This document shows positions 8,293 through 62,074 of a stretch of DNA of 64,000 bases, piece by piece; the first letter of the stretch is position 1; each line of letters starts with the position of its first letter. The notes beneath the pieces are model-generated. The model was given only the letters and a program-made list of their open reading frames with translations, made no database searches and had not been told where the DNA came from. The stretch is from Obrimoposthia wandeli. Its lineage: Eukaryota. The stretch spans positions 1-64,000 of the forward strand of contig CDROCS010000412.1 in NCBI GenBank assembly GCA_977020255.1, read 5' to 3'. The translations under genes were made by a program, and so were the position numbers.

Positions 8293-10429
8293 AATATAGA
8301 AAATTCAATTGGAGTGTTTATTCGTATTTCAGAAAAACATACTTATTTTAAACAAGATCCCGAAATGATTCCAGATTTTATTTTTCCTACGAACTTGTGA
8401 ACTTCAGATTTGAAAAGACATTTACAGTGATCTGCAAAATAAATCAAACAAGATCCTTTACATCGTAATGGTTTATTTTCTATTACATACGATATCGCTG
8501 CAGAAAAAGTACCAAAATCAGAATTACCTTAATTTATTAACAAATATACTTTGTAAACGTTGGTAGACAAAAATATAACCGAACTTCCGAAACCAAAGAA
8601 ATATTTTGGGTTTTTAAAATAAATATAAAGTGTCTAATTTCTTATGATTTCTTCTATTTCTTTCTCGCATTCTTTTCCCCTACTCATTAGTAGAATAAAC
8701 AATCTAATATAACTTATGTATATTTTAAGAGATCCTCATGTACCAAATCAGATAAAAGTACAACTTAAATGTAACTTAATAAAACTTAAAAGAAAAATAT
8801 TTGACTTAGGTAACGAATTCTTAGATAAGAATAATAATAATAAGCAAATTTAGTTGATTTAATATATGTAACTGATCTAAAAATATTTTTTTTAAATTAT
8901 AAATTTAAAACGGAATCAAATCCTAATTTTCGAAAGTGCAAATAGAAATACGACCTTAAAATTGTTCAGTTAACATTTGTAAAAATTAATGTGAATGTAA
9001 TGGCTTATTCGACGAGTTACAAGGACAAGTTAAATCGATTACAAGCGAAAAACCAATTTATCAGTGGCGACTGATAGTTCAGCACGATTCACTATCAACT
9101 GAAGGCTACCATATTTCTTCAGTACCTACTTACAATTTAACAGGTGCTGTTGACTCGCAGGTACCGACAAAAATATTTACGAAGTATAAAAATTTCTTTA
9201 CGACTAACATTTATGCATTTGAGCAGATTTCACACACTAAAATATATCAATAATATAAATCATATCAATTACGATTATAGAACTGATAAACTACCATTAT
9301 GCTGAAAGCAATAAAATTGAAAATGCAAATCATCTGAATGACACAACCAAAGGTCCCTATACTAGTCAGGGTTTAAGGGTTGATAGCAAGATAGGTAATG
9401 CAGATAAATCGTATAGAAAACATGGACGTTGAATTGGAATTATGTAGTCACCGTTATCAATTCGTTGCATCTGAATAGTTTTCTTATGTTGCAGTGTAGT
9501 CCTCGGCTTTTCCAGACAAAGTATGAAACTTGATTCGATTTTGTTGATCTATGCGTATTCAATTCGATTTTCGTACCTCAATGCAAAAAATGTCTAATAA
9601 GGAAATATTGAAAGACTTTTATAAATAAAATATAGTGACGTTCGAAAATATATATTTTATTTAATAAAGAGTTTAATTTTAAGTTCTAATAACAACTAAA
9701 GTATATGTCAAAATAATTTTCAAGAAAACATCATTTTATATCAATTATCAGACATTGTCTATAAATATAATCTTAAATTGAATAAAAAATAATCTTTCAA
9801 TAATTTTAGAAATGGCTTTTGATGGCGTTTACATGTTATGTACAATATACTGTATTTATGTATGAAAAGTAAACTATTTAGTTCAGAAGAATTTTATAGG
9901 TTAGATTACAGATTTAATATTATATGAAAATATATTCAAAGTTTAATATTAAATTAATAATGTTTGCTAATATATTATATATTTTATTTATAATAAAACG
10001 TTGTTTTAACTGTTTAATTGTATCTCAATTTTTGTTTAAAAAATTAATTAAATTATACAAATAATTTCGATTAACAATAGTAACATTTTTATTCTAAATA
10101 ATTTAAATATATGTCAACTTTAATAAATTTAAATAAAATAATATTCATATGATAACTGATTTTTTTGTATTTATTTTAATATGACTGATTTCACATCAAA
10201 AAGTTATCAGTGAAAACTCGAGTCCTGTTTCAAGAAACCTTTTTTTAATTATTGTCCCATGAAATTTTTAAAAATAATGCATTCTCACAAATTTATCCCT
10301 TATACGCTTTTTAATCTGAGAACATATGTTTCAATATCTTAAAATGGGCTTCATGGAAAAACGTGAGATATGCTCATCAAGCCTCTTTTGATGTTTGTAA
10401 AATTGAGATAGAAAACTGTTTCTCAGATT

Positions 10430-11383
10430 TGTTGGGTTGTTAATAAAAATAATTAATTTTTGTCAATTTAATTTGACATTTAAAAGTAATCTAAAATGCC
10501 CACAATTAGGGAGGTTTTCAAATTCAGCCTCCGACGGGGTGGTCCCGTTTCGCCTTGCCAGGCTCATCAGGAAGGCGGCTAGTTTTTTTTGATAGAGATA
10601 AGAAAGTGGTTTTGACCACCAAAGATTTTTTCCGCCCAGAAAAGACAGCGGATGTGATTGCGGTTTGATGCAATCTGGCTGATCATCATCATCATCATCA
10701 TCATCCTCATCCATCATCCTATCGGTCAGCATCCACACAGTCACTTCTATCCTGCCTTCCTCGGATGCAGTTGATGGTGCATCGCAGAGATTGTGTGTGC
10801 AACGGAGATCGATGCAGTTCAATCCACCTGATTGCAATGGCTTTGCCAATGCCACATGCTTGCCGATTGCCGCGGGATCTTCCTCTCAGCCTACATTGAC
10901 AACAGTAACAGCAGTGAAAGAGACATACACACAGATTATCCGTTTCACCTGTTGCTGCACATCCTGTGTACTGCTGTCATTTCACATATCTGGCCTTTAC
11001 ACAAGTCCACAATCTGTCGGCTACTGCATATTGATTGATTTTTGGCAGAGGATGGAGGCTGTGTGTTGACTTTACACTTTTGATATATAAAATGCAATTG
11101 GGATTTTGTCAAGACAGAAACTGATTTTATCAAATACACAAAAATTATTATAAAAATATTTTCAGCAAACAATTGATTGAAATCAACAATTTGATATTAC
11201 AGAAACGAAGTTATTTCATCAACAATTTGATATTACAGAAACGAAGTTATTTCATCAACAATTTGATATTACAGAAACAAAGTTATTTCATCAACAATTT
11301 GATATTGCAGATTCAATTAATAAATTAGATTTTGATCATTATTTGATTTTTGGAGGGATTAACCACATATACCATTTATAACA
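10430..11383 (+). repeat. 5' LTR (954 bp)
   Basis: TGTTGGGTTG...TTTATAACA. By eye it differs from the 3' LTR by about four substitutions and one ATC unit. Contains a 36-bp tandem repeat at 11182..11313. Confidence 0.95.
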
Positions 11384-11386
11384 ATT

Positions 11387-12160: not shown

Positions 12161-13301
12161 AGATTAACATAATTTTGTTTCCTGAAACATAGTCGGGTCC
12201 TGTTCTCTAATTTTCTTTTATAATTTGAGTTGTGTTGATCATTTTAATCGTAAAAGTTATAGAAAAAATAATTTATTGGTTTTCGGAGTTCTGTTCACAT
12301 AAAGGCTAAACACTGGCTGTTGTCGGATAGAGTTTTGAACACTGACAAATATATTAAAAGAGTAATCAACAAACGAAGCACAACTCAAATACAATAAATT
12401 TTGAGAAAATTTTAACATTTTCCTATGAACTGGTTTACCAGTAAAGATTCGTTTTTTGAGAATTATAAATTGGAGTGGATTTATCTATTAGAGGCGTAAA
12501 AGTAAAATAAAAACTAAAAAGATAATAAAAGTTAAAATAATCATATAAATATATTTTTGAATAAAAAATAAAATTGATCAAAAAATTTAAAATTTTGTCG
12601 CAAATTGTCTTGTTTCCCAAGTTACGTCGAGTGCTATCATAAAGACTATATACTGGTTGGCGGTGGTAGTGCTCAAAGTGATAAGGGACAGAGATTTTTG
12701 AGAGAAATTTTTGAGTCTTGTTATTGTACTAAAAAATTAAAAAACAAAATAAAATAAAACTTCGGAAAGATAAATTTTCTCCAGATTTTCAGAGAGCGTG
12801 TTTTTAATATTGATAAGAGAGTTTGATTTTGAGATTGACTAAATAACTTTTACGAATTTCACCGAAATATTTTTAGTTTCAGTACACAGTACGCATTTTT
12901 CATTTTTGCAATATTTGATTTTGAAACTTTAAATAAATTACTAATAACACAAACCCAAAGATCTATCACAAAAACAGACACACAAAATAAGTAAACAAAA
13001 ACGTAGCGCTAGCCTTCACTGGAGAAGAATTCAAACAAGATTACTTAGGACAGACTCCAGTGAAAAAACGATTCAAAGACCCAAATCACAAATCAGTTTT
13101 ACAAGAAATAACGATTTACTTACACAGACTTCCCCACTCTCAGAACATCTGGACCTAACATTAACCTCAGATACAGAGAGTTTACCTTCACCACAAACAT
13201 CTGACTCGGATAGTTCGTCAGAGATAACGGAAGCAGTAGCCGTACCAGAACCACATATTGTACAAATAAACAACGAACAAATAATCGATCAACCTCAAAT
13301 A

Positions 13302-14528
13302 ATGGCTGAACATAAATTAAATGTTCCTTTAGACGCTTTCAATGGCGATAAATCTTCACTACCCGAATTTTTAAATAGATTTGATTCATTTGCTCAGGCA
13401 TTTGAATGGACTAATGTAGAGAAACTTAGGGTTTTTCTGGCGTATTTAAAAGGCACTGCCTTAACAATTTATAGAGGATTAAATAATGAACAGAAAGACA
13501 CATGGGACCATTTAGTTCAGAATTTTCAAAATATGATTTTAGGTGCACAGTCTGAATAAAATTACCTTAACCAATTTAGGCAACGTGAACAACATTTGGG
13601 AGAACCCACAAATATTTTTGCAGTTGAATTACGAAGATTAGCCTTAAAATCATTTCCCGGAATTGAGGAAGTCTTAAGAGAACGTTTGCTCCTACATCAA
13701 TTTCTATACGGGCTAAACAGTAAAATAAAAAATCACCCAGCACTACTAGAAGTAGAAAATTTTCAGCAAGCTGTAAATAAGGCTCAACTTGTAGAAACAA
13801 GATTAAACATGTTACAACAATCTGAAGTTTCAGCATTAACCTTTGAAAAAATACAAAGACCAACAATACCACCAAATTTCAATCAAACTCAAAACTATAA
13901 CCCAAATACACAATCTAATTACCAAAGCCAACAACAATATACACCACCGACAAATAACTTTTATAGAAATCAAACAAACAGAAACTATACAGACTCACAA
14001 ATTACTCAAAGACCTTTCCAAAAATGTACAAATTGTGGACTGCAAAATCACACAATAGAGAATTGTTATAAAATAACCAACAACAAATTTTGTAGATTTT
14101 GTAAAAAAGACAATCATACTATTGAAACTTGCCGAAAATTGTTATACAGACAAGGTAATAATATAAGACCACAAAATAATAACTTTAATAATCTTAATAA
14201 TAATTTCAAAAATACAAATAGTAATTTTAGAAGCCCATATAATAATTTCAATAATTAAAATAATCAAGCTAAATATTTTAATACTAATACAAAATTTTGT
14301 AAAATTTGTAATATGAAAAATCACAATACTGATGAATGTAGCAAACTAAATACAATGATGAACCAATTTGGTAACACAACAATAAAACAACCACAACCAC
14401 AGAGTCAAAAAACAGTACAGTTTAACAATCAAAATCAACAATATGCTTACAGAAACCCAATACATACTATTGAAAACACTGATATAACTCAGGAAATTGA
14501 TGAGATTAAGGCAACAAGAAATAGATAA
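13302..14528 (+). CDS. gag: Gag (capsid plus three CCHC zinc knuckles), interrupted by one frameshift (~13558) and one in-frame TAA (14256..14258)
   Basis: FNGDKSSLPEFLNRFDSFAQAFEW capsid-like segment. Knuckles CTNCGLQNHTIENC, CRFCKKDNHTIETC and CKICNMKNHNTDEC (C-X2-C-X4-H-X4-C). Confidence 0.85.
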
Positions 14529-14624
14529 TCACTACAAAGAAACACATCAGCAATACCAAAACAATGAACAAAACACAAATAGTACCAACTCTCAATCCGA
14601 ATTCGGAGAAATATTTAGAAATGG

Positions 14625-16710
14625 TTGTCTAACATTAAAAAAAAGAACACTCAAACCACTCAAACACAAGATAAAAAATCGAAAAATAAAAATAAACGAA
14701 AAACACCAAAAAATAGTAAAAAGTCAACTATTAAAAATACATATAATTTTAACAAAATCATCCAGAATCTATGGAAAATAATTCAAATAATATTTATGAT
14801 ATGTATAATTACAAATATAATAAAACCAGTTAATGCCTTGGAAGCGTATGATTGCTCAAAATATAGTATTCGAAATAAATATTCCTTAATGGATTTACAA
14901 CAATGTGCTGATGCCGACCCTAACGAAGTAAAAATCAAAACCACCAAGTTATTCCATGTATATCAGGAAACAGATTTCATAAATACAGAAGTTTTCGAGT
15001 GTAGGGTACACGTAGAAACATTCATAACATATTGCGGACAACACAGCCATAATTCAATTGTCAAACCTGCACTAGGAAAAATACCAATAATTGTCGATGC
15101 ACTAAATTGTAAGGACGCTTTTGCAACAGGAGAACTAAGAATAGATAGAGAAATTAAAGTACGAGCAGTAAAAAATAAAATTATACAACAAATGATTACA
15201 GTAGTAGGAACAATAAAATCTGACGGTGCATGTACAATAGGCACATACGTTGTGATGGGAGTCAAACAAAGTGGCTTAGTAGTTAAAAAAAACTTTGAAG
15301 TAGAACTAAGAACGTTCAAGGCAACATTTGACCCATCTACAAATAATATGGTAACTATGCCATTTTGCGAAGCAAATATAGGTCATTGCAATACAGGATC
15401 CTCAATTTTATATTATAAGGTAAAAACAGACCAATGTAAATTAATACTCCTAAAATCTGAGATTTTTCAAATAATTCAAGGTCAAAGATTTAAAGATGAC
15501 CCGGAACTTGATCAAAGAGTGCCAAAAGATATACATAAAAAATATAGGACAAGAAAAATTCAAAAAACATCAACCCCAACTATTTTAATGTCTACAGAGC
15601 AAGGTTCTGGAATGCGATTTATTAAAAAGAAAGAGGAATCCCGATGTGGACACTCTATTTATACAACTAACTATAAAGGAATATATTTAAGTAAAGAAAA
15701 AATATATAATGCAAAAACGACACCAACAAAGTTTGACATAAAAAATTACGATTATTTTAATAATAAATTATTATTTTTATCACAAAGGATTAATGACAAT
15801 AGAAGCAATTTATAGAGAAACGATAATAAATGACTGTAAATTAAACCAAGAAATTTTGAAAACAAAATTGGCAATTATTGCTACAAATCCAGAATTAATA
15901 ACATCATTATTACCACTAGCTGATGGTACTTTTGGAAGAGTAATGGGAGAAGTGCTATATACTTATCAATGTAAAAAAGTAATAGTTAATATAAGAAATC
16001 ATAATAAATGCACTAAAGAATTACCAATTTCATACAAAAATCATTCATTATTCGTAGAACCAATCACCAGAATAATACTTTTTAATACATTCAGTATAAA
16101 GGAAATGAATTGCTCAAACATAATGGCATCTCATTATCAAATCTCAAAGGATATTTGGATATCACTCCCAAGAAGAGACATAGTTGCTCAACCATTAAAA
16201 TTACAATTAACCGACCTCAATAACGACATAGAAATAAAATCAGACAATGAACTCAATACAAAAGGTATATACATACAAGAAGACATAGACAAATTAAGAA
16301 AAGAAATTTTATTTCCTCAAATTAGATCACGAATTTTAACACAAATAATTGAAAGATCAGTACCAAATGGAATTGGCCGTCCTGATTATGATTTATTACT
16401 TTCTCCAAATCATTTCATAAAAGCTACACAAAATACAATGTCAAAAATATGGGGAAAATTTTTAATTTTTGGTCAAGCATTTTCTGGACTTGTGGGAATA
16501 TATGCATTGCTAATATGTTTTAAGATCCTTTTGAGTCAAATTTTATCTACATATTATATTTATAAAGTTGGTGGATTGACATGGAAACTAATTTTAGGAT
16601 GTTTTCCATTTTTGGCAAAATTTCTTATATTTAACCATCATCAAAATACAGTAAACGCATTATCAAACGAAATGCGAGAAAAAAAATTTACAAAAAATAG
16701 TAGACAATAA
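14625..16710 (+). CDS. env: Envelope glycoprotein of class III type (chuvirus G / herpes gB-like), split by one frameshift at ~15800
   Basis: Basic leader plus hydrophobic signal ending ..NIIKPVNA|LEAYDC. Cys-rich ectodomain. YFNNKL...IY...C...LAII..NP...GEVLYTYQC segment and C-terminal FGQAFSGLVGIY...IK hydrophobic anchor, as I recall for chuvirus-like glycoproteins. Confidence 0.75.
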
Positions 16711-19453
16711 AAATAAAGAGAATACAGAATCTGCACAATACCCCGATTTAGAAATATATAAAGAAGAAATAAAAGTTCAAAAATCAGCTGCACCAACAAT
16801 ATATACTATAAATCAAATGAATAATGATAGACGACCTTATGTAAAAATTGAAATAAATGAGTATAAATTAAAAGCTTTAATTGACACAGGATCAAGCGTA
16901 ACAGTTTTGGACGAGTCTTTCTTAAAACCACACCAAATATTAGTACTTCTCACAGATAATAGTCAAATAACAGCAGCAAACGGTCAACCCGTAAATATTA
17001 TTGGTAAATTAGATTGCATTTTTAAAATAGGAGATAAATTTATAAAAATACCTACTAGAATAATGAAAAATTGTCCATGTCAGATGATAATAGGAATAGA
17101 TACATTAAGGAAATTAGGAAACAATTTTCATTTCGACTTCGAGAAAAATCAAATTAAAGACATTTATAGACCAAACGCTAAAAGCGAATACGAATTGGAA
17201 ATAAAAGGAGATATCATCCTTCAACCTAGAACAGAAACAATATTACAATTAGAAACTAACATAGTTACAGAAAAAGACATCTTATTCGAACCTTATAAAT
17301 ATCAACAAGAAACACTAAATAACGTTCTACCAAATATAATTTTTAAAATAAAAAATAATACAATACCAATCAGAATACTAAATGGAGATATAAACGAGAT
17401 TCATCTAAAAGTAGGAACACGCCTTGGAAAAACAAGTGTTATAGAAAATATAGAATTAATTAATAATGAAAAAATAGAAGACAATATAACTGTAGAATTC
17501 GAAAATATTAGATTAAATGATTATGAGAAATCAAAATTAAAATCATTAATAGAAAAATATGACGTAATTTTTGCAAAAAATGAATATGACCTTGGACGAA
17601 CAGATTTAATTAAACATAACCTTCCGTTAACTATTAATACAGCAATCAAACAACGACCTTACCGTATCCCATACGCTTACAGAGAAGAAGCTCAAAGACA
17701 GGTAAAAGGAATGTTAGAGAATAAAATCATAAGAAGAAGTTTTTCAGCATGGACATCTCCAGTTGTTTTGATAAAAAAGAAAGATGGTTCACTGAGATTT
17801 TGCGTAGATTACAGAAAATTAAACGAGATCACACATAAAGACACATATCCGCTTCCAAGAATCGATGAAATCTTGGATATACTAAAAAATGCAAAAATAT
17901 TTACAACCTTAGATTTACAAAGTGGATATTGGCAGATAGAAATAGATGAATCAGATAAAGAAAAAACAGCATTCTCAACAGGAGAAGGATTATACGAATT
18001 TAACGTTTTACCTTTTGGATTAACAGGTGCTCCAGCAACATTTCAGAGATGCATGAGCCACATTTTGATGGACGCCGATCATGTCATGGTCTATATCGAC
18101 GATATTCTAATTTTTTCAAAAAATTTTGAAGAACATTTAAAAGATTTAGAAAATGTATTTCTTAGATTAAAAATAGCAGGTTTAAAATTAAAACCAAAAA
18201 AGTGTGAATGGATGAAAGACAAAGTGAATTATCTAGGTCACGCAGTATCTGCAAAAGGAATTCAACCAGATGAAAGTAATATAGAAAAAATAAAGAATTT
18301 TCCAATCCCAAAAACAATAAAAAATATACAAGAATTTTTAGGACTTGCAGGATATTATCGTAGATTTATCAGAAACTTTGCACAAATAGCAACACCATTA
18401 AACAAACTTATTAAAAAGGATGAAAAATTTGAATGGGAAACGGAACAACAAGAGTCATACGAGTACTTAAAACAAAAATTGATTGAAAAACCTATATTGA
18501 GATATCCTAATTTCAACAACTCGTTTCTAGTAATGACTGACGCAAGTGGATATGCGTTAGGAGCAGTACTAGGACAACAAGATAATAACGAAAAAGATCA
18601 TGTGATAGCTTACGCAAGCAGAGGTTTTAAAAAACACGAAATAAATTATTCAATAGAAAGAGAATGCCTCGCTATTTGTTTCGCAATGGAACATTTTAAA
18701 CATTACTTATTAGGTCGAAAAGTTCACGTTTATACTGATCAAAGACCATTACAGTGGCTACTAAATCATAAAGATACAACATCTAGATTAATGAGATGGG
18801 CGTTAATTCTGCAAAAATATGATATTGAAATTAAATATAGAAAAGGTAAATCAAATGCCAATGCAGATTGCCTATCTAGAATAAGAGAAGAAGTAAATGT
18901 AATAAATTCCAATGACACCGAATTAAATATTTTTACAATAATCAAGGCTCGATATGATGATAAAGTAATCACCGATCTTCAAAGCAAAGATACGGAATTA
19001 CAACAAATAATTAAGTACATCACCATCAATCAAGTTCCAACAGATGAAAAATTAAGAAAACATTTAAAAATTCATGAATCTCGTTATAAATTCAGTAACA
19101 ATATTTTACATTATTTAAACGATAAAAATCTGTACTCACTAGTTATACCTAAAGAAATACAATGCCAATTACTCCTTCAATATCATAACGGAGCTTTAGG
19201 AGGACATATTTCAACAAAAAAGACACATTCGAGATTAAATTTAAAATATTATTGGATTGATATGAAAGAAGATGTAAAAAATTGGTGTAATACTTGTGAA
19301 ATATGTCTTAAGAGAAAAAACACTTTACGTACCACAAAGATACCTTTAAAACCAATACGGTATCCATCAGCCCCCATGGAAACTGTTGCCATGGATGTAA
19401 TGGGGCCATTACCTGAAACACCCCGAGGAAATCGATATATAATAGTATTTTAA
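16682..19453 (+). CDS. pol: Pol: aspartic protease, RT, RNase H and integrase HHCC domain
   Basis: ALIDTGS protease, YIDD RT, MTDASG..ERE..YTD RNase H, HNGALGGH..CEIC zinc finger, first catalytic D (AMDVMG). The frame is open from 16682, upstream of ATG 16817. Confidence 0.95.
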   Translation, partial: KNLQKIVDNKNKENTESAQYPDLEIYKEEIKVQKSAAPTIYTINQMNNDRRPYVKIEINEYKLKALIDTGSSVTVLDESFLKPHQILVLLTDNSQITAANGQPVNIIGKLDCIFKIGDKFIKIPTRIMKNCPCQMIIGIDTLRKLGNNFHFDFEKNQIKDIYRPNAKSEYELEIKGDIILQPRTETILQLETNIVTEKDILFEPYKYQQETLNNVLPNIIFKIKNNTIPIRILNGDINEIHLKVGTRLGKTSVIENIELINNEKIEDNITVEFENIRLNDYEKSKLKSLIEKYDVIFAKNEYDLGRTDLIKHNLPLTINTAIKQRPYRIPYAYREEAQRQVKGMLENKIIRRSFSAWTSPVVLIKKKDGSLRFCVDYRKLNEITHKDTYPLPRIDEILDILKNAKIFTTLDLQSGYWQIEIDESDKEKTAFSTGEGLYEFNVLPFGLTGAPATFQRCMSHILMDADHVMVYIDDILIFSKNFEEHLKDLENVFLRLKIAGLKLKPKKCEWMKDKVNYLGHAVSAKGIQPDESNIEKIKNFPIPKTIKNIQEFLGLAGYYRRFIRNFAQIATPLNKLIKKDEKFEWETEQQESYEYLKQKLIEKPILRYPNFNNSFLVMTDASGYALGAVLGQQDNNEKDHVIAYASRGFKKHEINYSIERECLAICFAMEHFKHYLLGRKVHVYTDQRPLQWLLNHKDTTSRLMRWALILQKYDIEIKYRKGKSNANADCLSRIREEVNVINSNDTELNIFTIIKARYDDKVITDLQSKDTELQQIIKYITINQVPTDEKLRKHLKIHESRYKFSNNILHYLNDKNLYSLVIPKEIQCQLLLQYHNGALGGHISTKKTHSRLNLKYYWIDMKEDVKNWCNTCEICLKRKNTLRTTKIPLKPIRYPSAPMETVAMDVMGPLPETPRGNRYIIVF

Positions 19454-19481
19454 TTTACAATTTTACAAATTATATTAATTT

Positions 19482-20345
19482 ACAAGATGGCCAGAGGCTT
19501 TCCCAACACATGATCATAAGGCTGAAACCATCGCGAAGGTTTTAGTCGAAAAAATTATTTTTACTTTCGGTGCACCCCGAAAATTATTAACCGACAAAGG
19601 TCCTGAATTTATAAATAATGTATTAGAATCAATAGCTGAAATCTTTCACATTAAAAAGATCAATACAACACCATATCACCCTCAAACCGACGGATTAGTA
19701 GAAAGATTTAATAGAACCCTCGAAGATATGATGGCATCATACACAAACAACAACCAAACAGATTGGGATTTACACATACCCCCATGCCTTTTTGCATATA
19801 GAACATCAGTACTTGCATCTACAGGAGAAACACCTTTTTACCTTATGTTCCTCAGAGATCCTCAAATGCCTATTGATCTAACATTACTACAACCTACTAC
19901 ACAGTATCTAGAAATACCTGAATACAAAATAGAAATTAGAGAAAGAATAAAACTAGCATTTGAAAAAGCTAAATTATTTGTAAAAAAGATACAAGAAAAT
20001 TACAAAGAATATTATGATAGAAGAACTAAACCATCAAATATAAAAATCGGAAGTAAAGTAATGATTCACAATCCACAAATCAATGTAGGATTATCACACA
20101 AATTATCAAAACCATACAAAGGACCATATACAGTTATTAGTACCAATGGAACTAACATAACAGCCAAACTCGACAATGAACCAAAATCAAAAGAAATAAG
20201 AACACATATAAACAGATGTCGAGAAATACCAGAGGAAAATACAAAAGTAAAAAATCACAAATATAACTTAAGATCAACTAACAATAATACTGTTCTACAA
20301 ATGTTAACTATAAAAACTCACAAAAACAAAACAAGACTAAATTGA
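19482..20345 (+). CDS. pol: Integrase catalytic core and C-terminus, after a frameshifting insertion at ~19451-19481
   Basis: TRWPEAF...LTDKGPEF...TTPYHPQTDGLVERFNRTL, GPY motif (KPYKGPY), and YNLRS end. Confidence 0.9.
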   Translation, partial: TRWPEAFPTHDHKAETIAKVLVEKIIFTFGAPRKLLTDKGPEFINNVLESIAEIFHIKKINTTPYHPQTDGLVERFNRTLEDMMASYTNNNQTDWDLHIPPCLFAYRTSVLASTGETPFYLMFLRDPQMPIDLTLLQPTTQYLEIPEYKIEIRERIKLAFEKAKLFVKKIQENYKEYYDRRTKPSNIKIGSKVMIHNPQINVGLSHKLSKPYKGPYTVISTNGTNITAKLDNEPKSKEIRTHINRCREIPEENTKVKNHKYNLRSTNNNTVLQMLTIKTHKNKTRLN

Positions 20346-22457: not shown

Positions 22458-23586
22458 ATGGAACAATCAAGCTCAAACCCCCATTTGAATTGGCAGGTTG
22501 TTCCGCGGGGAAAGAGAGAAAAGTCAATAGTACTAGCAGATAAACGACCTGAAATGGCAAAAATGGCTAAATTCCTTTATGGAAAAATAAGACAATTCAC
22601 CACTTTTTTCTTTAATATGGCCAAAAACGTTTGAAAATCAAACACAACTTCCTAATAGGATTAAGCTCAGAGATACAATTAGAAGGAGCATAATCCTAAA
22701 CTATAACAATAAAAAATCTACAGATAGAAGACTGTTAGATATTATTAAACCCATCCCAACATGCACAGATATTGAAATCCATATGGCAAAGGACCGCGGT
22801 TTCTTACGGCATAATAAATGCAAAAAGTTTAGCATTCTCCTTTTACAAAATCATTCCTATAGAATAAAATGGCACCAAGTCACACCAGACTATAAAATTC
22901 ACTTACCCAATGGCCATAATATATTATTCATAGAGCAAAACATCCAACCCAAACCTGTTCAAGTTTGCCACTTAACAGTCACCCCCACTAGTCCACAGTT
23001 ATTTTTTGTCGATTGCGAAATGGTGAGAAAAATGAATAACCAACAAACCTTAGCCAGTATCACCATAATGGACAAAAGTGGAAAAATCATATTAGACACA
23101 CTATGTAATAGCCAAGACAGAATCAGGTCTTACGTCACATTTAAGACGGGACTAACCGAGAATAAACTGAGAAACCAACCTGATTCTAAGGAGATAGTGA
23201 AACATGTTCAGTCTTTATTAAGAGGCAACATCTTCGTTGGAACGGGAATTGTTAACGACCTAAAAGTGTTAGGATTGAAAAAAGATGATTTTTCAAAGAT
23301 TGTGGACTTGGGCGCAACAAAAACCATTCTACAAGATATGAATCGTCGTGAACAGGCGGGATTAGCAGGAATGGTTAAATTCTTTTTTAATAAGATCATC
23401 CAAAAAGATACCCACTCTAGCCTAGAAGATACCACATGGACTAGACAAATTTTCCTTTTTAAAGAACAAGAACTGCTAAAAGAATGTGGTTTGACCGTCT
23501 CTTTTCCCCGCGTAACCAACGCTAATTTTCCTGTCGTAACCGAGGTTATAGATCTCACCTCCTCTGATTCCGAGGATGATGATTAG
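22458..23586 (+). CDS. DEDDh 3'-5' exonuclease (REX4/ISG20-like) with N-terminal extension
   Basis: FFVDCEMV (ExoI D,E), VGTGIVNDLKVL (ExoII D), THSSLED (ExoIII H,D). The frame of the 22783 ORF is open back to 22591, and one extra T in the 22604..22609 run would join it to ATG 22458. Confidence 0.85.
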
Positions 23587-23918
23587 TGGTAGGAATTTTT
23601 TTTTTTTTTTCGTCAAAGTGTTTCGAGAGAAATCAGGATAAATGAAGTTTTTAAAAAGTAAACACTACTAAGTTAATCGCATTGTGGTTGATTTTTATCG
23701 AAACACTAAAGAAAAAATAGATGTTTTTTCTTGCCTGAGTATGCTCAACGTTATATGATATTATTTTACTTACAGAACTCGTGTTTGGTAACAATAATTG
23801 ATGTGTAATAAATATATATATATATTTTTTTTAGATAAACAATTACCAAAAAACTATAACAGTTTATTTTCTTTTAATTACAACGTCAGAGGTCTGACTT
23901 GGTTTTCCCCCATAGGAT

Positions 23919-24875
23919 TGTTGGGTTGTTAATTAAAATAATTAATTTTTGTCAATTTAATTTGACATTTAAAAGTAATCTAAAATGCCCACAATTAGGG
24001 AGGTTTTCAAATTCAGCCTCCGACGGGGTGGTCCCGTTTCGCCTTGCCAGGCTCATCAGGAAGGCGGCTAGTTTTTTTTGATAGAGATAAGAAAGTGGTT
24101 TTGACCACCAAAGATTTTTTCCGCCCAGAAAAGACAGCGGATGTGATTGCGGTTTGATGCAATCTGGCTGATCATCATCATCATCATCATCATCATCCTC
24201 ATCCATCATCCTATCGGTCAGCATCCACACAGTCACTTCTATCCTGCCTTCCTCGGATGCAGTTGATGGTGCATCGCAGAAATTGTGTGTGCAACGGAGA
24301 TCGATGCAGTTCAATCCACCTGATTGCAATGGCTTTGCCAATGCCACATGCTTGCCGATTGCCGCGGGATCTTCCTCTCAGCCTACATTGACAACAGTAA
24401 CAGCAGTGAAAGAGACATACACACAGATTATCCGTTTCACCTGTTGCTGCACATCCTGTGTACTGCTGTCATTTCACATCTCTGGCCTTTACACAAGTCC
24501 ACAATCTGTCGGCTACTGCATATTGATTGATTTTTGGCAGAGGATGGAGGCTGTGTGTTGACTTTACACTTTTGATATATAAAATGCAATTGGGATTTTG
24601 TCAAGACAGAAACTGATTTTATCAAATACACAAAAATTATTATAAAAATATTTTCAGCAAACAATTGATTGAAATCAACAATTTGATATTACAGAAACGA
24701 AGTTATTTCATCAACAATTTGATATTACAGAAACGAAGTTATTTCATCAACAATTTGATATTACAGAAACGAAGTTATTTCATCAACAATTTGATATTGC
24801 AGATTCAATTAATAAATTAGATTTTGATCATTATTTGATTTTTGGAGGGATTAACCACATATACCATTTATAACA
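23919..24875 (+). repeat. 3' LTR (957 bp)
   Basis: Near-identical to 10430..11383, ends TATAACA followed by GATT. Confidence 0.95.
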
Positions 24876-25879
24876 GATTCAATATGCATTTAAATTCGAT
24901 AAGAATCCCGGAATTTAAATGTAAATTCATTGTCATACACAATTGTCTTCTTAACAATTTTCTAAAAACTCTAAACGCAAGTAATATTTAATTTTGATAA
25001 AAAAAACTTTTAAAACTGTATTTCATTTATGTAATCGAACTCTCATAATAGTTGAGTGCTCCTAAATATTGTAATTTCATTTAATTATACTTTTTTATAG
25101 AAATTATCATAATAATATAATCTATATAATTAAGAATTTAATATAATTAAAAGGCTTAACTGTTTTTTAATCAACTAAAATGTGAGGGTAAAAGTTCTTC
25201 TCAAATTCAATAAATGCTGTAACAAAATATCCGTCCTAACTTTAATTAGTGGTTCTTCAAAACGGATACTGTGTAAATTAGCTAGATATATAAATTTTAA
25301 TGTAATTTTTAAAGACATTAAATTAATAATTATAAAATAGGTATACAGATATATTTTCTAAATTATTTTTCACCTAAATTGACTGCAATAATTTTAAAGT
25401 TTTATTCTTATGTTTTGACAAAAATGATTTTTAATAAAACTAAAAAATTTATGATTTTAAGTAGTTGCTTTTAAAACTGCTTAGTAGTGTATTAGTAAAA
25501 AATAATAGCACAGCCTTAAAAATTTTAATTAATAAAAAGAGCAATAAAACGTTTCTATCACTATAATTTTATTAAAATAAAGTTGTTTTTTCAAACAAGA
25601 AATTTAACGAAATAATTGAATATTTTTTAACTAACTTTTTAAATTTTAAAAATGTTAAGGAATCCAAGATATGCTTGCAAACTAATTATTGAATTCATGT
25701 TTTATGCAAAATATAATTTTTAGTAATTTAAATTAAATAAAATTAAATCATTTTTTATAAAAACATTATTTTTAATTTTAAATGTTTTAAATTTTCATAA
25801 AATTTTGAAATTATTTTAAATTATTAATATGTCATATGTTATAATTATTTTATTAAATAATTAATATAACTTTGATATA

Positions 25880-30924: not shown

Positions 30925-31185
30925 CCCCTGAGGACAAACTCAGGTCACGGTGAGGACAAGATGTAGGTCATGACCTCATGAGGTCAACTTAAGGTCAAGA
31001 TGTAGGTCATGACCTCAGGAGGTCATGGGAAAATGTAGGTCAAATTTCTCCCAAGTACACATGATTTTTTATTTAAAGTCATGAGGACAACTTAAGGTCA
31101 CAATGAGGACAAGATGTAGGTCAAGGCAAGTTAAGGTCATGACGTCATGAGGACAATGTACTTTAAGGTCACGGTGAGGTCAAAA
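30925..31185. repeat. Degenerate GC-richer tandem repeat built on AGGTCA half-sites
   Basis: About 12 aggtca copies, including aggtcatgacct palindromes and repeated gaggacaagatgtaggtca. Confidence 0.85.
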
Positions 31186-31364
31186 AGATTCTATTTTTAG
31201 TAACATACTTTAAATCTATATATATTTTTATCTAAAGGTGGTATTAACACCAATTCACCAAAATACATCTCGTGTGTGTGTTTTATAATTTAAATTAAAT
31301 TATCTACTTATAAAATAAAGTATTATATAATTTGATAATCATGTTTAAACGTTCCTATATCTAT

Positions 31365-33498
31365 CTAACAAAGACAGTCACGTACTGCATCTATATTGCA
31401 AAAACCTGCAAATTTATGTAAATTTATGTAAATACCAATATATTTAAAATAAAGACAAGTATTTCTAACACATATATTCCTTAAAATCACAAAGGAGAAT
31501 AAAAATATGTACAACACATATAAAAAGTGACCATAGGCGACTGAACGGTTTTTCTCCACCCACTTGCGCTTATCATCACTACTGCTTAAGGCAATTTTAC
31601 TTAACCTTACAGTAAAAAGTTGATGATTTAGCGAGCTTATACGTTGTTGTTGTACACGCTCGCTAACGCCACTCTCATATACGGCTAAGTAATTAGAGTG
31701 CCTAATACTCGTCTGTCGGAGACTAATACCTTTCGCTCTCATCTGAGATTCACCTTCTGTAGTCTCTAGGCTATATGATTTTGGTCGTAGAAAAATCCCT
31801 TGCCTATAACTAAATAATCCCTTACTCTCATCTTTAAATTTTCCTATCGCTGTATTAATCGTCGTATAAAGCGGATGGGTTTTTGGAAATTTCGAGGTAT
31901 CCAACAGTCCATCAGCAATCATAGCAGGTAACAGTGATTCTTGAACATTGACATTATTACACTTCAAGAAAAAGCTATCAGTGTCACCCGCTATAATTCT
32001 AATGTCGCAGTTAAATTGAACTCGATATTTCTCCAACTGCTCATATTGTAGCTCATACATACGAAGTTTGCTTAAATCTAATACCGCCTGGCCCATGTAA
32101 CTAGGACGATCCAAAACAATATTTTCCTTATCCAGTAAAACTGCAATAAGGTCCGTGTCGATTTCGATTGTCCTACGAAAGTGGGCTTTACTGCAATAGG
32201 TAACCAGCTTCTGTGGAGTATTACAAATCCGGAGGTTAATTCTTTTCATTAGATTCTCAATGAGTTTTCCAAATAAAGAATTCACCTTCAGTTTGTAGTA
32301 ATCCCGCTCGAAATCTGTTGTAGCCGCAGCTCTTTTGAGAGAATTATCCTCAATATTTTTTGAAAAAACAATAGTTTGTTCAAACTGTATTGCTCTATAT
32401 ACAAAATCTACCTTAGCACCAAGTCTAACGTACATTTGTAGCAATCTAGAATGCACAACATAATGTTTCTTAGGGTAATGCGTTAATAACAATTTTTCAG
32501 TCTTACACCCTGGTGGACGCTGTTTAATTGGAGCAAGGGGAAGATCGTCGAATTTATTATGAAGCTCGTTGGGAATGGATAAATCTATTTCCAATAAATG
32601 AGCGAAGCGACTACAGGATAAATCTATTGATTTTAAGCTGGAGATAATATTCCCCAACTCTAACCGATCAGTCACCCAGGAAAAGTTACCACAAGGTAAA
32701 AACTGGGACATAGCCCACCCGTACAAATTATTTACATCAATGTACAAAAGTTCTGTACCATTGATGGCGTCCACGCGGTGTTCATTAACAAATGTCATAC
32801 CCCCGCGAATCCCGGACCGGAAGAGTCGGTACAACTCTGGATCCTGTATTAGCTCGACTCGCACAGGAGGAGAAGAAGAAGCCGGACGAAGCAGGGATTT
32901 GAAAGCACTCGCGAAAGTCAGTCCTGGAAATAAAAACATTTATTAAAATCATTGTGAAAATCATTACTTTGAAAATCATCTATCTAACAAAGACAGTCAC
33001 GTACTGCATCTATATTGCAAATACTTGCATCTTTATGTAATCAATAGTAACAAGAACTACATTTATTCTTATACATGTATATATATATATATGTGTTAGT
33101 GTCTAAAATTAGAAAAAATTAGTAAAATACAAACCAGGGATGGAGAAGAAATTGAGTGGCTCCAATCCATCGTCAGCAATGGCCTTAGTCCGGAATGCTG
33201 TAAACACGTCTGCTAGAAGGTAGACGTCCATCTTCATATAGACCAGCATATAGTCCCAGAGCGATGAGCAGCCGCTCTGAGTCCAGACCATCTTCGCCAT
33301 TTCATATTGTGCTGGCTTGATCTTTTCATCCCACTTTGGCGGTAAGCTGGTGATTGCGCGAAGAGCAGTCTCTGATACTGCCATATCGTATGGGAAGATT
33401 CCCTTGGCGCTCACCAGATGTTGTGAGAAGATGTGTTTTACTACATCAATAAAATTAATTAATCCGGGAAGAGTATATAAGAGAAAAAATAATTTCAT
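31365..33498 (-). CDS. polB: Family B DNA polymerase of protein-primed/Polinton-like type, two exons, 5'-truncated
   Basis: KGIFPYD, Y..MDVYLLADVF (ExoIII), GIRGG, YIDVNNLYGWAM (Pol I), KLKVNSLFGK (Pol II), IAGDTDSFF (Pol III), ..AYGH end. Removing intron 32924..33134 restores FFSIPG|LTFASAFK. No ExoI/II coding found upstream. Confidence 0.9.
32924..33134 (-). other. 211-nt phase-1 GT-AG spliceosomal intron in polB
   Basis: Donor CCT G|GTTTGT, acceptor TTTATTTCCAG|GA CTG; AT-rich interior; frame preserved. Confidence 0.8.
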
Positions 33499-33508
33499 TT
33501 TTTATAAA

Positions 33509-33763
33509 ATGAATTTTCAAGAAATGAAGAATCTAATGAAGCTTGTTACCAAGAAAATTGAGAAGAAAAAGAAAACAGATGATCTCCGACAGAAGATTTT
33601 TAATCTCAATCTATATAATGCCATAGCAAAAGAGTGGAATGAGAAAATAGAAGAAATACAAGTAGTTGAAGCAAGAAGAAGATGCCTGGAATGGAACAAG
33701 AAGATTGAGTTGAAGAAGAAGGAAGCTGGAGATGGAGCACAAACGCAGAGTTCGAAAGATTGA
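33509..33763 (+). CDS. 84-aa Lys/Glu-rich helical protein, unknown function
   Basis: ATG ORF MNFQEMKNLMKLVTKKIEKKK..., purine-rich coding-like composition next to polB. Confidence 0.4.
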   Translation: MNFQEMKNLMKLVTKKIEKKKKTDDLRQKIFNLNLYNAIAKEWNEKIEEIQVVEARRRCLEWNKKIELKKKEAGDGAQTQSSKD

Positions 33764-34839
33764 GCTGATGATGGAGGGGATAAAAGAAGCCCAAGCTAAA
33801 GAAGATCCTTCTGCGAAAAAATAAATATTGTGTGTATGTAAATTTTTCTTCTTTTTCTCTTTACGCGTGTATTTCAAAATTATTTTAAAGTTATTAAACT
33901 AAACTATAATCTTTATCTATGTCTAACAAAGACAGTCACATACTGCATCTATTATGCATGTATGTGTGACTACTAATTAATTAATTAAACATATGTTTTT
34001 CACTTGCTTACATCACTCATGTATGTGTGTGTGAATAATTAGATATAGGTTACCATTTAGTTACTTCACTCAGCCATGTAAATTATTAAACAGAGGTTAA
34101 AATAAAGCTTAATCATGTATGTATGTGTGAGTTTGTATGTGTTTAATAAAGCTTATGTATATTACCAGATATCTAATAACTTGTGTAAAGTTGATCATGT
34201 ATAGTGATTTTACTACATCATATCAAAATTTGTTTTAATGCATCAATTTCAATACCCGCAACTTCAAATATATGTTTGTTATGGTTACAAGTATTCGTGA
34301 TTTTACTACATCATAACAAGATATATTCACTAAATGTAGGCATCACTTCATCTTATCTCTTCATAACTTCATCTTCTCTTCTCATCTAATGTTTACTAAA
34401 GAAACTATGAAATCTCAGATGTTAAACTGAAATTAAGAATAGATCCATATTATACATGTTATTGATTACAGTTATTAAATCTCAATTAAGGTATTGATAT
34501 TTCTAATATAGAATTGAAACTTATACTACTAATAATTTATCAATATAGCTAGTATTTATTGATTTTATCATGCTTACAGACTGTTATGTATTTCTATCAT
34601 ATGAAAATTATAACTAAAGTAGATACTTAAATATCCACAGGGTATTTATATCAATGTATAGCAAATATAGTAAACATACCTAGAAGGATGGAGAATAGTA
34701 ATCCATGGGAGTGTATTCTTATTGGTGGAAGATTGTTTGAACAAGGAAACACATATAGTAAGAATAGCTGAGATAAATTGGAGTATAGTATAGTAATACA
34801 CTGGAATGTCTTCTGATTGCTGGAAGATTGGTTGAGCAG

Positions 34840-35150
34840 GGAATAGACTATAGTAATATGATGTGTATGAGTGTATGTATGTGTGTACATGCATGAATAC
34901 TTAGAAAATTGTATAAGTTGTTTGAGCAAGAAAATAGACTATAGTAATATTATATGTGTATGTATATGTGTGTATGTGTGTGAATACTTTCAAAAATATA
35001 TAACAAATATACTATAGTAATATTGTATGTGTGTGTATGTGTGAATACTAACAAAAATTTACAAGTTGAGAGAACAAGGAAAATAGAACATAGAGACCAT
35101 TGGGTATGTGTATGCATGTGTGTCTGAATACTTACAAGAAATACAAGGTA
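34840..35150. repeat. Degenerate ~85-bp repeats with (GT/AT)n tracts
   Basis: Recurrent aatagactatagtaata..tgtgtatg..gaatact. Confidence 0.6.
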
Positions 35151-35324
35151 TATACTAAAATCTAATCATAAAACATTCCATCTCTATCTTTTTCAATTCC
35201 ACATCGATATTGTTTATCATAATAACAACTATATGTTCTAAAAGTATTGATGTATTCAGGAAATTAATGATATGTTCAGAAAATTTACAATATTTAGATG
35301 CTTCTAGAAGAGAAACAGGGAACT

Positions 35325-35715
35325 CACATGGAAGTTTAGTGGTTTAAGAAGGAAAATAACGTGGAAGTTAGGGAAATCTCGTGGGAGTTGAGTGGTTTAA
35401 GGAGGAAAATAACATGGAAGTTAGGATAATCCCAAGGTAGTTAGGAAAATCTAATGGAAGTTAGGGAAATCTTGTAGTAGTTAGGGAATTCTCAAGGAAG
35501 TTGAGTGGTTTAAGGAGGAAAATAACATGAAAGTTAGGATAATCCCATGATAGTTGAGGAAATCTCATGGTAATTAGGGAAATCTTCCAGTAGTTAGGGA
35601 ATTCTCATGGAAGTTGAGAGGTTTAAGGAGGAAAATAACGTGGTAGTTACGATAATCTCATGGATGTTAAGAGGTTTAAGAGGAAAAAATATAACAAGTA
35701 TTATGGTTTAAGGAA
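35325..35715. repeat. Degenerate purine-rich tandem repeat
   Basis: Recurrent ggtttaaggaggaaaataacatggaagttagg and aatctcatggaagttgag. Confidence 0.8.
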
Positions 35716-58638: not shown

Positions 58639-59937
58639 CTAACCGGGCGGGCTGCACGGGTGCTGCTCGTCAAACATTCGGTCATCCTGGTCGATAGCCT
58701 TGGTCCTGGTATGCGGTCCACTCTGATCGCTGGGTAACTTCCGAATGATCGAAGCATTCTGGCTGCCATTAGTTTTGATAGTTAACCTTGCTTTCTTCAC
58801 ACATGGAGTCAAGGGTGTACCCCGCTTCGCCGGAAAAGGTTTCTTAGGAATAGTGATAATATTTGGATCCTTAAAAAGGGGCTGGTTGAACTCGTGGATC
58901 TTAATGCGTCTGTTGAGTGCATCTCTGGTTTCTTGTTCAAGATCCTTCGGCCAAAACAATTGCATAGAGTTGGTGATGAAAATACGAGGCATGAATTGAG
59001 GAAGTTGAGCAGATGTATATTTGACATTTACTGTCCTCGTAATGTGTCGATCTACTATATGTAGGAGATTGACCGCCGACCATGAAGCAAAGTTCATGTC
59101 GTCAATCACTAAACCGTCGTGCTCCGGTCCAATTTTAGCGAAATCTTGCCTATCCGAAATGAGAAGGGGATTAACGAAATGTGACAACGCAAAATGCGTT
59201 TTGCCTACACCAGTCTTGCCCACAAATATATGGGTTAGCATAGTAGAAGGATCGCTGAATTTGACTTTCTGGTGATCAGGAACACCTTGCACATCGATAA
59301 GAGGCCGAATAAAGTTTTCTGATTTGTAGATAATGTCCATCCTCTTTTGGAATAAGTAATTGAACGTGCGAGCACACTTATCGTGCTGCATGACAAAAGT
59401 TTCCGGCAACACTTGGCGTAGGTACTCCATTGACTCTTGGGTGCTGGTACATTCTTCCAAAATGTGCTTAAAAACTGATGATTTGTCTCCATCCCTACCT
59501 CGTTGTCCAATTTCTGCGAAATAACCATCTTGCACGTGTGTTTCTGTTTTGTTTGTTTTTTTGACATATTCTATCATATGATCGACATCTGCAGCATCGA
59601 CTGGTATAACATAGCGAATAACGAGCGCCTTACAGGCAGCCGAACATGTTTTTGCCGATTTGAATGTAGCGAATCCCTGAATCGAAATTAGCGATTAATA
59701 AAATCAATATTAAAAGCAAATTCAGATACCTGAAGGTGGTGAAATCCGAGAACTGACATTTCCTCTTGGATCACGAAGTATTTAGAGTGCTTGACTGCAT
59801 TGGCAGCGAAAGCCTCGGGACTGGAATCAGCGGTTAAACGATTGAATTGGTTGATAGAATTTGATTGTGATTGAAAATGTCTTGTGGCGGATTATTAGAA
59901 TTGCTTTGACAGAATCACAGTAAAACGTCATAATCAT
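58639..59937 (-). CDS. rep: Full-length circovirus-like Rep (HUH endonuclease plus SF3 helicase), spliced
   Basis: KYFVIQEEMSVLGFHHLQ|GFATFK (motif II across intron 59677..59729), IEYVKK (motif III), then helicase. Candidate motif I (KTFSITIKF) and ATG 59937 need a 1-nt correction at ~59836..59838 or another intron. Confidence 0.8.
59677..59729 (-). other. 53-nt phase-0 GT-AG intron in Rep motif II
   Basis: CAC CAC CTT CAG|GTATCT...CGCTAATTTCGATTCAG|GGA TTC. Branch-point-like CTAAT; in-frame stop inside the intron. Confidence 0.85.
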
Positions 59938-61268
59938 GATTCAATCCAAAATCGAAATAATGTTGAATAATTATAAATCAAATTGTATTATAACTCTGTC
60001 CTCGTCAATATTGTTTCAGAGATTCTAAAATTGTACATATATATATATGATTTTGTATTTAGTTTGTTCATATATGAAAATACAAATGTCAAATGTGACT
60101 GGTACACACAAGGGAGCCGATGGGATGACTGGGAGATGGTGGCAGAAAAATTGGCTAAACAATTACAGTGAAAAACCCTTAAAATTAAAAAATATTTCGT
60201 TTTAACAGATAATCATAGAAAATTAGAAAACAACGAAACACAATGTAGATTTAAAACTTTAATACCTATCAGCAAACAATTAAAACCCATATATATTTAA
60301 TTCCTTGTAAATAAATCTGTAATTTTCTTTTGTGACATTCTCTATAATGCTTACATTTTTAATCTCGACTCTTAGCTTTTGAGAAAGGACACGTTTGCAC
60401 TGCATTCGTTGACATTGCACTGAAGATAATATCGACTTCTGATTGCATCGCTTGTCGAAGGATACTTCGTCGATACAACCTGTACCTTATTCTGTCTCAT
60501 CCTTGATTCCATAATCAGTTCTTGCTGCTTAACAGATGCATATCAATGGAGGAAAATGAATCAAATGTCACGTCATCCTGGATATGAAGAAAGCATCACA
60601 CTATTTCAAACAAATCTTTCTAATGCGCTTTTATGGTGTCACAATTCGTCAGTAATGTTGAAGAGTAAATCCAAAATTACGTAAAAACAAATTTGTGAAT
60701 CAAAAAATTACAAATACTTTTAACATTTTTTTCCTTTTCTATGCATGGTAAAATAAACTTTTCTGTCCATAGATAAAATATAATCGAAAAATGGTCATTT
60801 TATTTACAGAAATTCGTTACTTTTTTCAGTTATACAATTATTGTATTTTATTTAATAGAAGACGAATTTGATTAAAAAGCACAAGACAGATAAATTAATA
60901 ATCTTTTATAACATCTGTAAAATTTATCGTTGAATTATTATTTTTCCATTTAAGCATGTTGTAACGATGTAATGAAAATTACGAACGGAAACCATTAATT
61001 CATCTTCAGTTTTAGGCTTAGTTGATCTAGCTAAGTATTTTCATTGAGAAAACATATTCTCAATATGATGGAGAAAGGACTGTATCGGCTGCCTTTACAA
61101 TACAAATTTGCTTCAATTTGATTGGTATCTGGTGGCATTGCCTTATAATCTATCGGTGACGATTTTGACATGGGAGGTATAGTTGTTATAATTGAAGGTA
61201 GGAAATGCGACAAAACAACAATAATTTTATTATAATTGTAATTATTTTTCACTTTCACAAAATATTGG

Positions 61269-61537
61269 ATCCACACAACAAAATTGATTTTCACAGTAAT
61301 TTAATCCACACAACAAAATTGATTTTTACAGTAATTGAATCCACACAACAAAATTGATTTTTACAGTAATTGAATCCACACAACAAAATTGATTTTTACA
61401 GTAATTGAATCCACACAACAAAATTGATTTTTACAGTAATTGAATCCACACAACAAAATTGATTTTCACAGTAATTGAATCCACACAACAAAATTGATTT
61501 TCACAGTAATTGAATCCACACAACAAAATTGATTTTC
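61269..61537. repeat. 35-bp tandem repeat, ~7.7 copies, inside the solo LTR
   Basis: atccacacaacaaaattgattt(t/c)acagtaattga units with no spacers. Confidence 0.9.
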
Positions 61538-62074
61538 AAATATAAATTCGTAGTTAAAGAATTTTCAATTAATTGAAGTAATTGTTCTTGTATTTGTGAA
61601 TAAATTTCTATAAAATAATTTTTTGTGTTTTCATGCAGTAGAACTATAAAAAAAACTATAAACAAAAACCGTGAATCCATACACACGCACACCCAAATGT
61701 CAACTCCATCTCATCTGGGCAGAGGGAAACACGATCACTGTTGTCTATTTATAGATTTAACATCAAGGCCGCCGGATAGCCAAATGAATCCGCCCTTCCC
61801 CGATCCGCAACCACGACACTCACAGTTCTGTAACACAACTATGTGCCAAACAGAAAACAGCACACTAGCAGACAAATCAATACTGGGACAGGGCTTATTT
61901 ACCAAATCATTAATTTCTGGTTACAAAGATAAAGGTGATTTAATCACAAACATATTGAATTATTATTACCTACTGACTTAACTATCTCAACACGTTATAA
62001 ATGTACATCATTTTATAAAATTGTTTGTCATAAAAAGATTTGATATAATTTCTAAAACTACGTTTTTAAATTGC

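Follow-up and report, generated by a model that had tools for sequence, protein, structure and literature searches.

The ssDNA viruses and virus-derived elements of flatworms include PEVE, the unique regions of which are flanked by inverted repeats, and PIVE. In the portions of these papers available to us, PEVE is cited as the ssDNA virus of free-living flatworms (PMC9241645), and Liu et al. 2011 (PMC3198968) describe PEVE as extrachromosomal and not found integrated, with PIVE as an integrated relative in Schmidtea. The available supplementary tree of the latter paper shows PIVE_3p beside the Rep of the large PEVE segment and PIVE_1p among NS1/E1-like proteins. Because PIVE is listed there as an integrated relative, integrated elements of this kind are already known. 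The element described below resembles PIVE in being an integrated, repeated element of a flatworm; its copies are chromosomal, unlike PEVE, and are mixed with Maverick fragments, which the available text of PMC3198968 does not mention for PIVE.

Host splicing of the Rep transcript is found in several groups of CRESS viruses, namely mastreviruses and genomoviruses, porcine circovirus (Rep and Rep') and cycloviruses. Mastreviruses and porcine circovirus keep an unbroken nuclease domain in each of the two products. The accessible part of Zhao et al. (10.1101/687855) gives one intron origin for geminiviruses and genomoviruses and a separate one for porcine circoviruses. An intron in the cyclovirus Rep gene is noted, with no position given in the available text, in PMC8880087, and the corresponding part of PMC6186406 reports predicted Rep introns in CRESS genomes of arthropods.

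Here we analyse a Rep gene in a stretch of 64,000 nucleotides of genomic DNA (hereafter, the window) and its copies elsewhere in the same genome. Splicing is likewise predicted for this gene. Its putative intron lies inside the nuclease domain, unlike those of mastreviruses and porcine circovirus, so that no active nickase would be expected from the unspliced RNA; as an earlier note on this DNA had held, the position also differs from that of the geminivirus/genomovirus intron. A search mostly of literature outside subscription returned neither an intron within motif II of any CRESS Rep nor splicing of PEVE Rep. The element itself is of a known kind among flatworm virus-derived elements; it is the position of the likely spliced intron for which we found no report.

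Results

A 5'-truncated Rep gene and its tandem array

The Rep gene of the window lies on the minus strand in two pieces. Exon 2 (58639-59676, 345 codons) encodes the remaining nuclease domain, with the motif III Tyr at 59566-59568, and then an SF3-type helicase with Walker A at 59197-59220. Upstream of it are a predicted 53-nt phase-0 GT-AG spliceosomal intron (59677-59729), assigned by sequence, profile and copy comparison, and a remnant of exon 1 (59730-59842), delimited by genome matches and the junction profile. This remnant consists of 37 codons and ends in motif II His-x-Gln, the His codon being 59736-59738.

We searched the genome of origin (1.35 Gb in 6912 contigs) and obtained 40 scored matches among 70 candidates. 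All 39 matches other than the window copy, 93-98% alike, end at window position 59842, beyond which other copies carry an ATG, a TATA-like box and a segment resembling motif I. The minus-strand flank at 59843-59937 gave only short unrelated matches elsewhere in the genome, and the ORF starting at 59937 scored 0.7 bits on the nuclease-domain profile. Four public runs, from one sample, were available as contigs of unrecorded kind; in contigs from three of the four, the family continuation differs from the window at 59842 (a loose end). The window Rep copy is 5'-truncated: the start codon and motif I are absent, and the locus itself is a dead copy. In the earlier note, the 5' part of Rep had been extended to a start codon at 59937, with a frameshift at 59836. 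That start codon and the apparent frameshift belong to unrelated flanking DNA outside the Rep gene; there is a truncation and no frameshift. A second, upstream intron in the window copy was also considered and is unneeded, because the flank at 59843-59937 is unrelated.

A tandem array of units of about 1.52 kb, 98-99.7% alike, followed by the head copy, occupies 36811-59550 on the minus strand (about 22.7 kb). The 14 headless units hold only the 3' part of Rep together with NS1-like and arm fragments, and indels are commoner in the inner units; the array junction is a loose end in a contig of one public run. At 31033-35391 (no strand assigned), there is left-arm sequence common to other composite copies, which contains a remnant of a Maverick-type DNA polymerase (31365-32939) and a coiled-coil ORF.

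The window also contains remains of a Gypsy-like LTR retroelement (12948-20345; gag, an envelope-like ORF before pol, and split pol/integrase, from ORFs read by eye) and a 331-codon ORF resembling a DEDD-type exonuclease (22591-23586), which is flanked by a copy of a 960 bp direct repeat (10429-11386 and 23918-24879). A 35-bp tandem repeat of about 8 copies, 97% alike, is located at 61264-61538.

A predicted intron directly after motif II

The 53-nt stretch starts with GT, ends with CAG and is positioned between codons, right after motif II His-Leu-Gln. Its GC content is 25%, compared with 48% and 42% in the flanks, and it ranks 7th for low GC among 1151 windows of 53 nt in the gene. Branch-like TTAAT/CTAAT is present inside the stretch, and its retention gives an in-frame stop. 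In a host myosin gene, gaps read by eye included five GT-AG introns of 46, 50, 50, 53 and 58 nt and a sixth gap of about 235 nt. The stretch shows the features of a U2 intron: a GT donor, a branch-like site, a YAG acceptor, restoration of the frame and a size typical of the host. Shuffles gave a chance of 0.057 for a bare GT..AG cut of 53 nt over 31 nearby registers, and 0.003 with the GTR, branch-like and YAG signals included. A short repeat, TTCAGG, is found at both ends of the stretch.

Employing a nuclease-domain profile of 30 uninterrupted relatives, drawn from the 150 best hits, we compared possible junctions. The two pieces joined with X at the break matched profile positions 2-91 with 52.0 bits; exon 1 alone gave 15.5 bits and the first 70 residues of exon 2 gave 29.1 bits. 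We scored 2339 open candidate junctions. A cut of exactly 53 nt is common to the top 15, and the best GT/GC-AG pair is the proposed junction (52.0 bits), followed by a GC-AG pair with 46.9 bits and the next GT-AG pair with 31.0 bits. Removal of this GT...CAG stretch restores the frame, in line with the earlier note, and the joined peptide matches a profile of the Rep nuclease domain, a check that the note had proposed.

The His and Gln of motif II are metal ligands. Both lie upstream of the cut, and the intron parts them from the motif III Tyr but not from each other. In the earlier note the intron had been said to cut the HUH motif; it follows directly after His-x-Gln, and the two ligands stay together. 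Counted from the motif II His, the Tyr is at position 40 in the window Rep, the same count as before; the spacing is 36-46 in the 30 relatives and 40, by eye, in PDB 7LAR, which we take to be porcine circovirus Rep. For comparison, motif II is given as PHLQG in the accessible part of PMC12197738.

RCR motifs II and III are present in the window copy and motif I only in fuller copies, all in correct order and spacing. The SF3 helicase (Walker A, Walker B, motif C and Arg finger) was aligned to the 30 relatives and 7LAR. Searched separately, the two exons gave no match to Pfam Viral_Rep, and the direct Pfam match to the helicase part was weak (Gemini_AL1_M, E 0.007). In a profile comparison, the similarity to Circoviridae Rep (7LAR and related) extended over both domains (E 5e-13), with the same His-Tyr spacing. 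At the level of sequence, the earlier reading of a circovirus-type Rep with HUH and SF3 domains is borne out, and so is the need for splicing within the nuclease part. The 53-nt stretch is likely a spliceosomal intron in the nuclease domain, predicted to be removed in the life of the virus. The joint did not appear in the contigs of the four public runs, which, with contigs of unrecorded kind, bears neither way on splicing.

The intron is shared by all copies that span the junction

We examined 50 loci, in which 45 copies span the junction. The stretch is held by 45 of 45, with GT kept in 44, AG in 44 and both in 43. Three further loci also contain it, and the exact 16-base exon-end pattern occurs 43 times in the genome, compared to 0 in the control. 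No intron-less (retroposed) copy was found among the 45 spanning copies, the three further loci and the 43 exact exon-end matches.

One variant, L111, is 84-86% alike the main family and contains the stretch with GT and AG kept. Between L111 and L022, synonymous differences were 0.72, 0.51 and 0.46 in blocks of 65, 36 and 52 codons, whereas non-synonymous differences were 0.07, 0.02 and 0.02 in the same blocks; dN/dS was about 0.03 upstream as well as downstream of the stretch, with the exons in different frames. The stretch of L111 differs by 5 substitutions and 1 indel, and in this comparison the intron was far more conserved than synonymous sites (Fisher p 1e-8). It is 54 nt long, with an in-frame stop, so that the length of the stretch is not tied to the frame. 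The divergent fragments L115 and L117 showed the same purifying selection, each on one exon. Because in L111 the stretch lay between the exons while both were selected as protein, the intron is likely to be older than the integration and to have belonged to the live virus.

The genomic copies are young (93-98% alike) and mostly broken. Among 43 copies scored, exon 1 is open from its own ATG in 23, exon 2 is open through the helicase in 12, and both are open in 6. The A-run following motif III differs in length between copies, and further on in exon 2 indels were found in 17 of 41 copies, some of them perhaps assembly errors. Several subfamilies have common breakpoints; one such point is shared by 9 of the 45 copies, giving subfamilies without start codon and motif I. 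In 44 copies (L111 excluded), non-synonymous changes amounted to 0.66 of a neutral expectation corrected for the mutation spectrum (p 0.009). The excess lies in two copies; without them, private changes were 28 synonymous to 71 non-synonymous (expected fraction 0.25). We read the family pattern as decay plus a few putative separate viral variants, with the qualification that pure decay does not predict the mild non-synonymous deficit. The proposal of a long-resident or domesticated Rep is unsupported: L111 shares the intron, the copies are closely alike and mostly broken, and private changes are near neutral. A domesticated gene would be one intact locus kept under purifying selection since its insertion; we found a truncated copy in a mostly broken family.

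The Rep gene is carried by a composite element

In fuller copies, a basic ORF and a 417-codon ORF are divergent from Rep, and E1/NS1-type helicase fragments are located nearby (PF00519, E 4e-9; PF01057, E 4e-8). Fuller copies also contain a phosphatase fragment and several Maverick-like pieces, namely a protease (PF00770, E 5e-4) and, as judged by eye, polymerase and capsid. When 10 loci were extended to 30 kb, inverted arms of about 3-6 kb, 97-99.7% alike and holding Maverick and other pieces, were found to flank the core in 7. The composite elements total 11-14 kb, with about 3.8 kb of core between the arms (loci L021-L060), and there are at least 43 dispersed copies. At the ragged ends of the extended loci, no shared terminus or target duplication was found.

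Helitron/Replitron-type transposons have conserved termini with a hairpin, no TIR and a transposase family of their own. In the element, shared termini were not found, and its Rep is of CRESS type. The element differs from Circoviridae: no nonanucleotide origin was found (NANTATTAC did not occur in the 4.1 kb core of the one copy examined, L021), the layout is one of inverted arms, and a circovirus-type capsid and a circular 2 kb genome were not seen (no Pfam capsid match; core of about 3.8 kb). The 417-codon ORF gave no Pfam capsid match, no homologues by word search and a blank Atlas result; its single-sequence fold failed (pLDDT 29), and there was no PDB match. Metagenome scans returned no useful relative. 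In a pairwise comparison the 417-codon ORF matched PEVE ORF1L weakly (22% identity over 185 residues, E 5e-4), and PEVE ORF1L falls in Atlas ssDNA capsid clusters of mixed families with 0.90-0.95. This comparison and the Atlas result for ORF1L hint that the ORF may be capsid-like. The basic ORF had no significant match to PEVE ORF2L (E 0.36).

Mitochondrial table 9 gives the best reading of the multi-copy COX1 in the assembly, in which AAA and ATA occupy conserved Asn and Ile positions; one such copy is on contig C652, which also carries the element. Table 9 is also used by echinoderms. The table-9 COX1 together with the link to PEVE points to a free-living flatworm as the host. The assembly also contains many stop-free, probably bacterial COX1 genes on many contigs, and one COX1 (C5352, L082) reads in table 5 and is mollusc-like by eye; the assembly therefore includes other organisms. 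The copies show a PEVE/PIVE-like virus inside an inverted-arm composite with Maverick fragments, in a flatworm-type host.

PEVE and a relative hold candidate introns at other sites

The window Rep and PEVE Rep share 29% identity over 282 aa (E 1e-31). PEVE Rep ranked 50th of 150 matches, with unnamed Reps scoring higher, which speaks against a close link. The phylogeny among Reps suggested in the earlier note was carried out as a quick tree of 83 rows (the first 75 matches of 250-460 aa of the 150, one PEVE relative, six viral loci and window exon 2), in which the window Rep and PEVE fell into a 10-row group with 98% SH-aLRT. The element and PEVE have in common related Reps, divergent orientation of Rep relative to the basic and capsid-like ORFs, and a host among flatworms; in both, a short GT-AG intron is predicted within the nuclease domain.

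The annotated PEVE Rep (NP_476526, 272 aa) starts just before motif II and is without motif I; a motif I-like segment is present upstream in a different frame (L061). A candidate 56-nt phase-0 GT-AG intron at L061:3915-3970 gave 84.7 bits, the best of 36 GT/GC-AG candidates. With the donor unchanged and the acceptor 12 nt further on, the score was 80.5; exon 2 by itself gave 68.3 and the annotated start 52.2. The GC content of this candidate is 27% versus 46%. It appears that PEVE Rep holds a missed 56-nt intron between motifs I and II, whereas that of the element is predicted after motif II; the two intron sequences are dissimilar by eye. In P0077, another protein of this group, about 18 inserted residues directly precede motif II; they look like an in-frame intron read through and would mark a third site in the group. 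Three other members, P0007, P0009 and P0011, show no interruption at the protein level. PEVE ORF1L may likewise be mis-annotated by frame breaks, because the relative P0166 has another N-terminal frame.

Discussion

Judging from sequence, we consider it probable that the window copy is a 5'-truncated PEVE-related viral Rep gene in which the 53-nt stretch is an ordinary short intron, removed by the host spliceosome. The gene consists of two pieces in different frames, exon 1 with motif I and the motif II His-x-Gln, and exon 2 with the Tyr and the helicase. Constitutive splicing would join the pieces into a nickase-helicase for rolling-circle or rolling-hairpin replication, and intron retention would give a short product ending within the intron, without the Tyr. 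Several viral variants would have integrated, one of them being caught among Maverick and NS1-like pieces in the 11-14 kb composite with inverted arms, and the composite would have spread passively to at least 43 places. Most copies are broken; the window copy has lost its 5' end, and its 3' part has been tandemly amplified.

It is unlikely, in our estimate, that the intron serves as a regulated switch in a domesticated Rep, with nicking controlled by retention versus splicing and Rep kept in use in the genome. Such a switch, as proposed in the earlier note, would be consistent with conservation of the intron well beyond that of synonymous sites, with a frame that ends inside the retained intron in both variants, with the mild non-synonymous deficit and with the 6 of 43 copies in which both exons are open. 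However, conservation is also expected of a 53-nt intron full of splice signals, and private changes are close to the neutral 0.25 once the two outlier copies are removed (28:71). Exon 2 indels in 17 of 41 copies, even if some are assembly errors, and a window copy without start codon or motif I also speak against continued use, and the intron common to L111 points to the virus stage. PEVE, a free relative, also appears to be spliced within its nuclease domain. We find it just as improbable that Rep acts as the transposase of an autonomous element, of rolling-circle or hairpin type, and that the composite spreads by Rep activity. At least 43 dispersed copies, the long, nearly identical inverted arms around Rep in 7 of 10 extended loci, and the head-to-tail units of the window, which resemble rolling-circle products, would all fit this explanation; but subfamilies that lack motif I and the start codon, with one break shared by 9 of 45 copies, have spread too, so that Rep in cis is not needed. 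Moreover, the element has no conserved ends, its core in L021 has no NANTATTAC origin, and the arms are explicable by Maverick machinery acting in trans or by fold-back replication of the virus genome.

Very unlikely, and more so than either of these, is that the 53 nt are unspliced and represent a disabling insertion or a ribosomal frameshifting site. By chance alone, a bare GT..AG fit would fall in register in 6% of cases, and a TTCAGG repeat at both ends is what insertions can leave; against this, the full signal set has p 0.003, and host introns are of matching size. Purifying selection acted on both sides after the stretch was present, and a stretch of 53 nt in one variant and of 54 nt with an in-frame stop in the other excludes a single frameshift rule.

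Beyond the reading that we favour, that of an ordinary host-spliced intron in a viral Rep gene, a bolder and rather doubtful extension is that viruses of the PEVE lineage gate their nickase by host splicing. Introns would have been gained independently at two or three places in the HUH domain (behind motif II in the element, between the first two motifs in PEVE and possibly just before motif II in P0077), retention would act as an off-switch, and the integrated spliced Rep would still mobilise a chimera of ssDNA virus and Maverick in the flatworm germ line.

Introns in the nuclease domain would keep ORF callers from seeing motif I or II, and Reps of this lineage may therefore be annotated short; the PEVE reference Rep (272 aa) is likely an example. 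Two different intron sites within such a small group of viruses would come on top of the two Rep intron origins given in the available part of Zhao et al. (10.1101/687855) and would provide a tractable example of how a compact DNA virus gains introns. The predicted intron would also mark the virus as one transcribed in the nucleus, with introns of host size, and would tie an unclassified Rep clade to flatworms.
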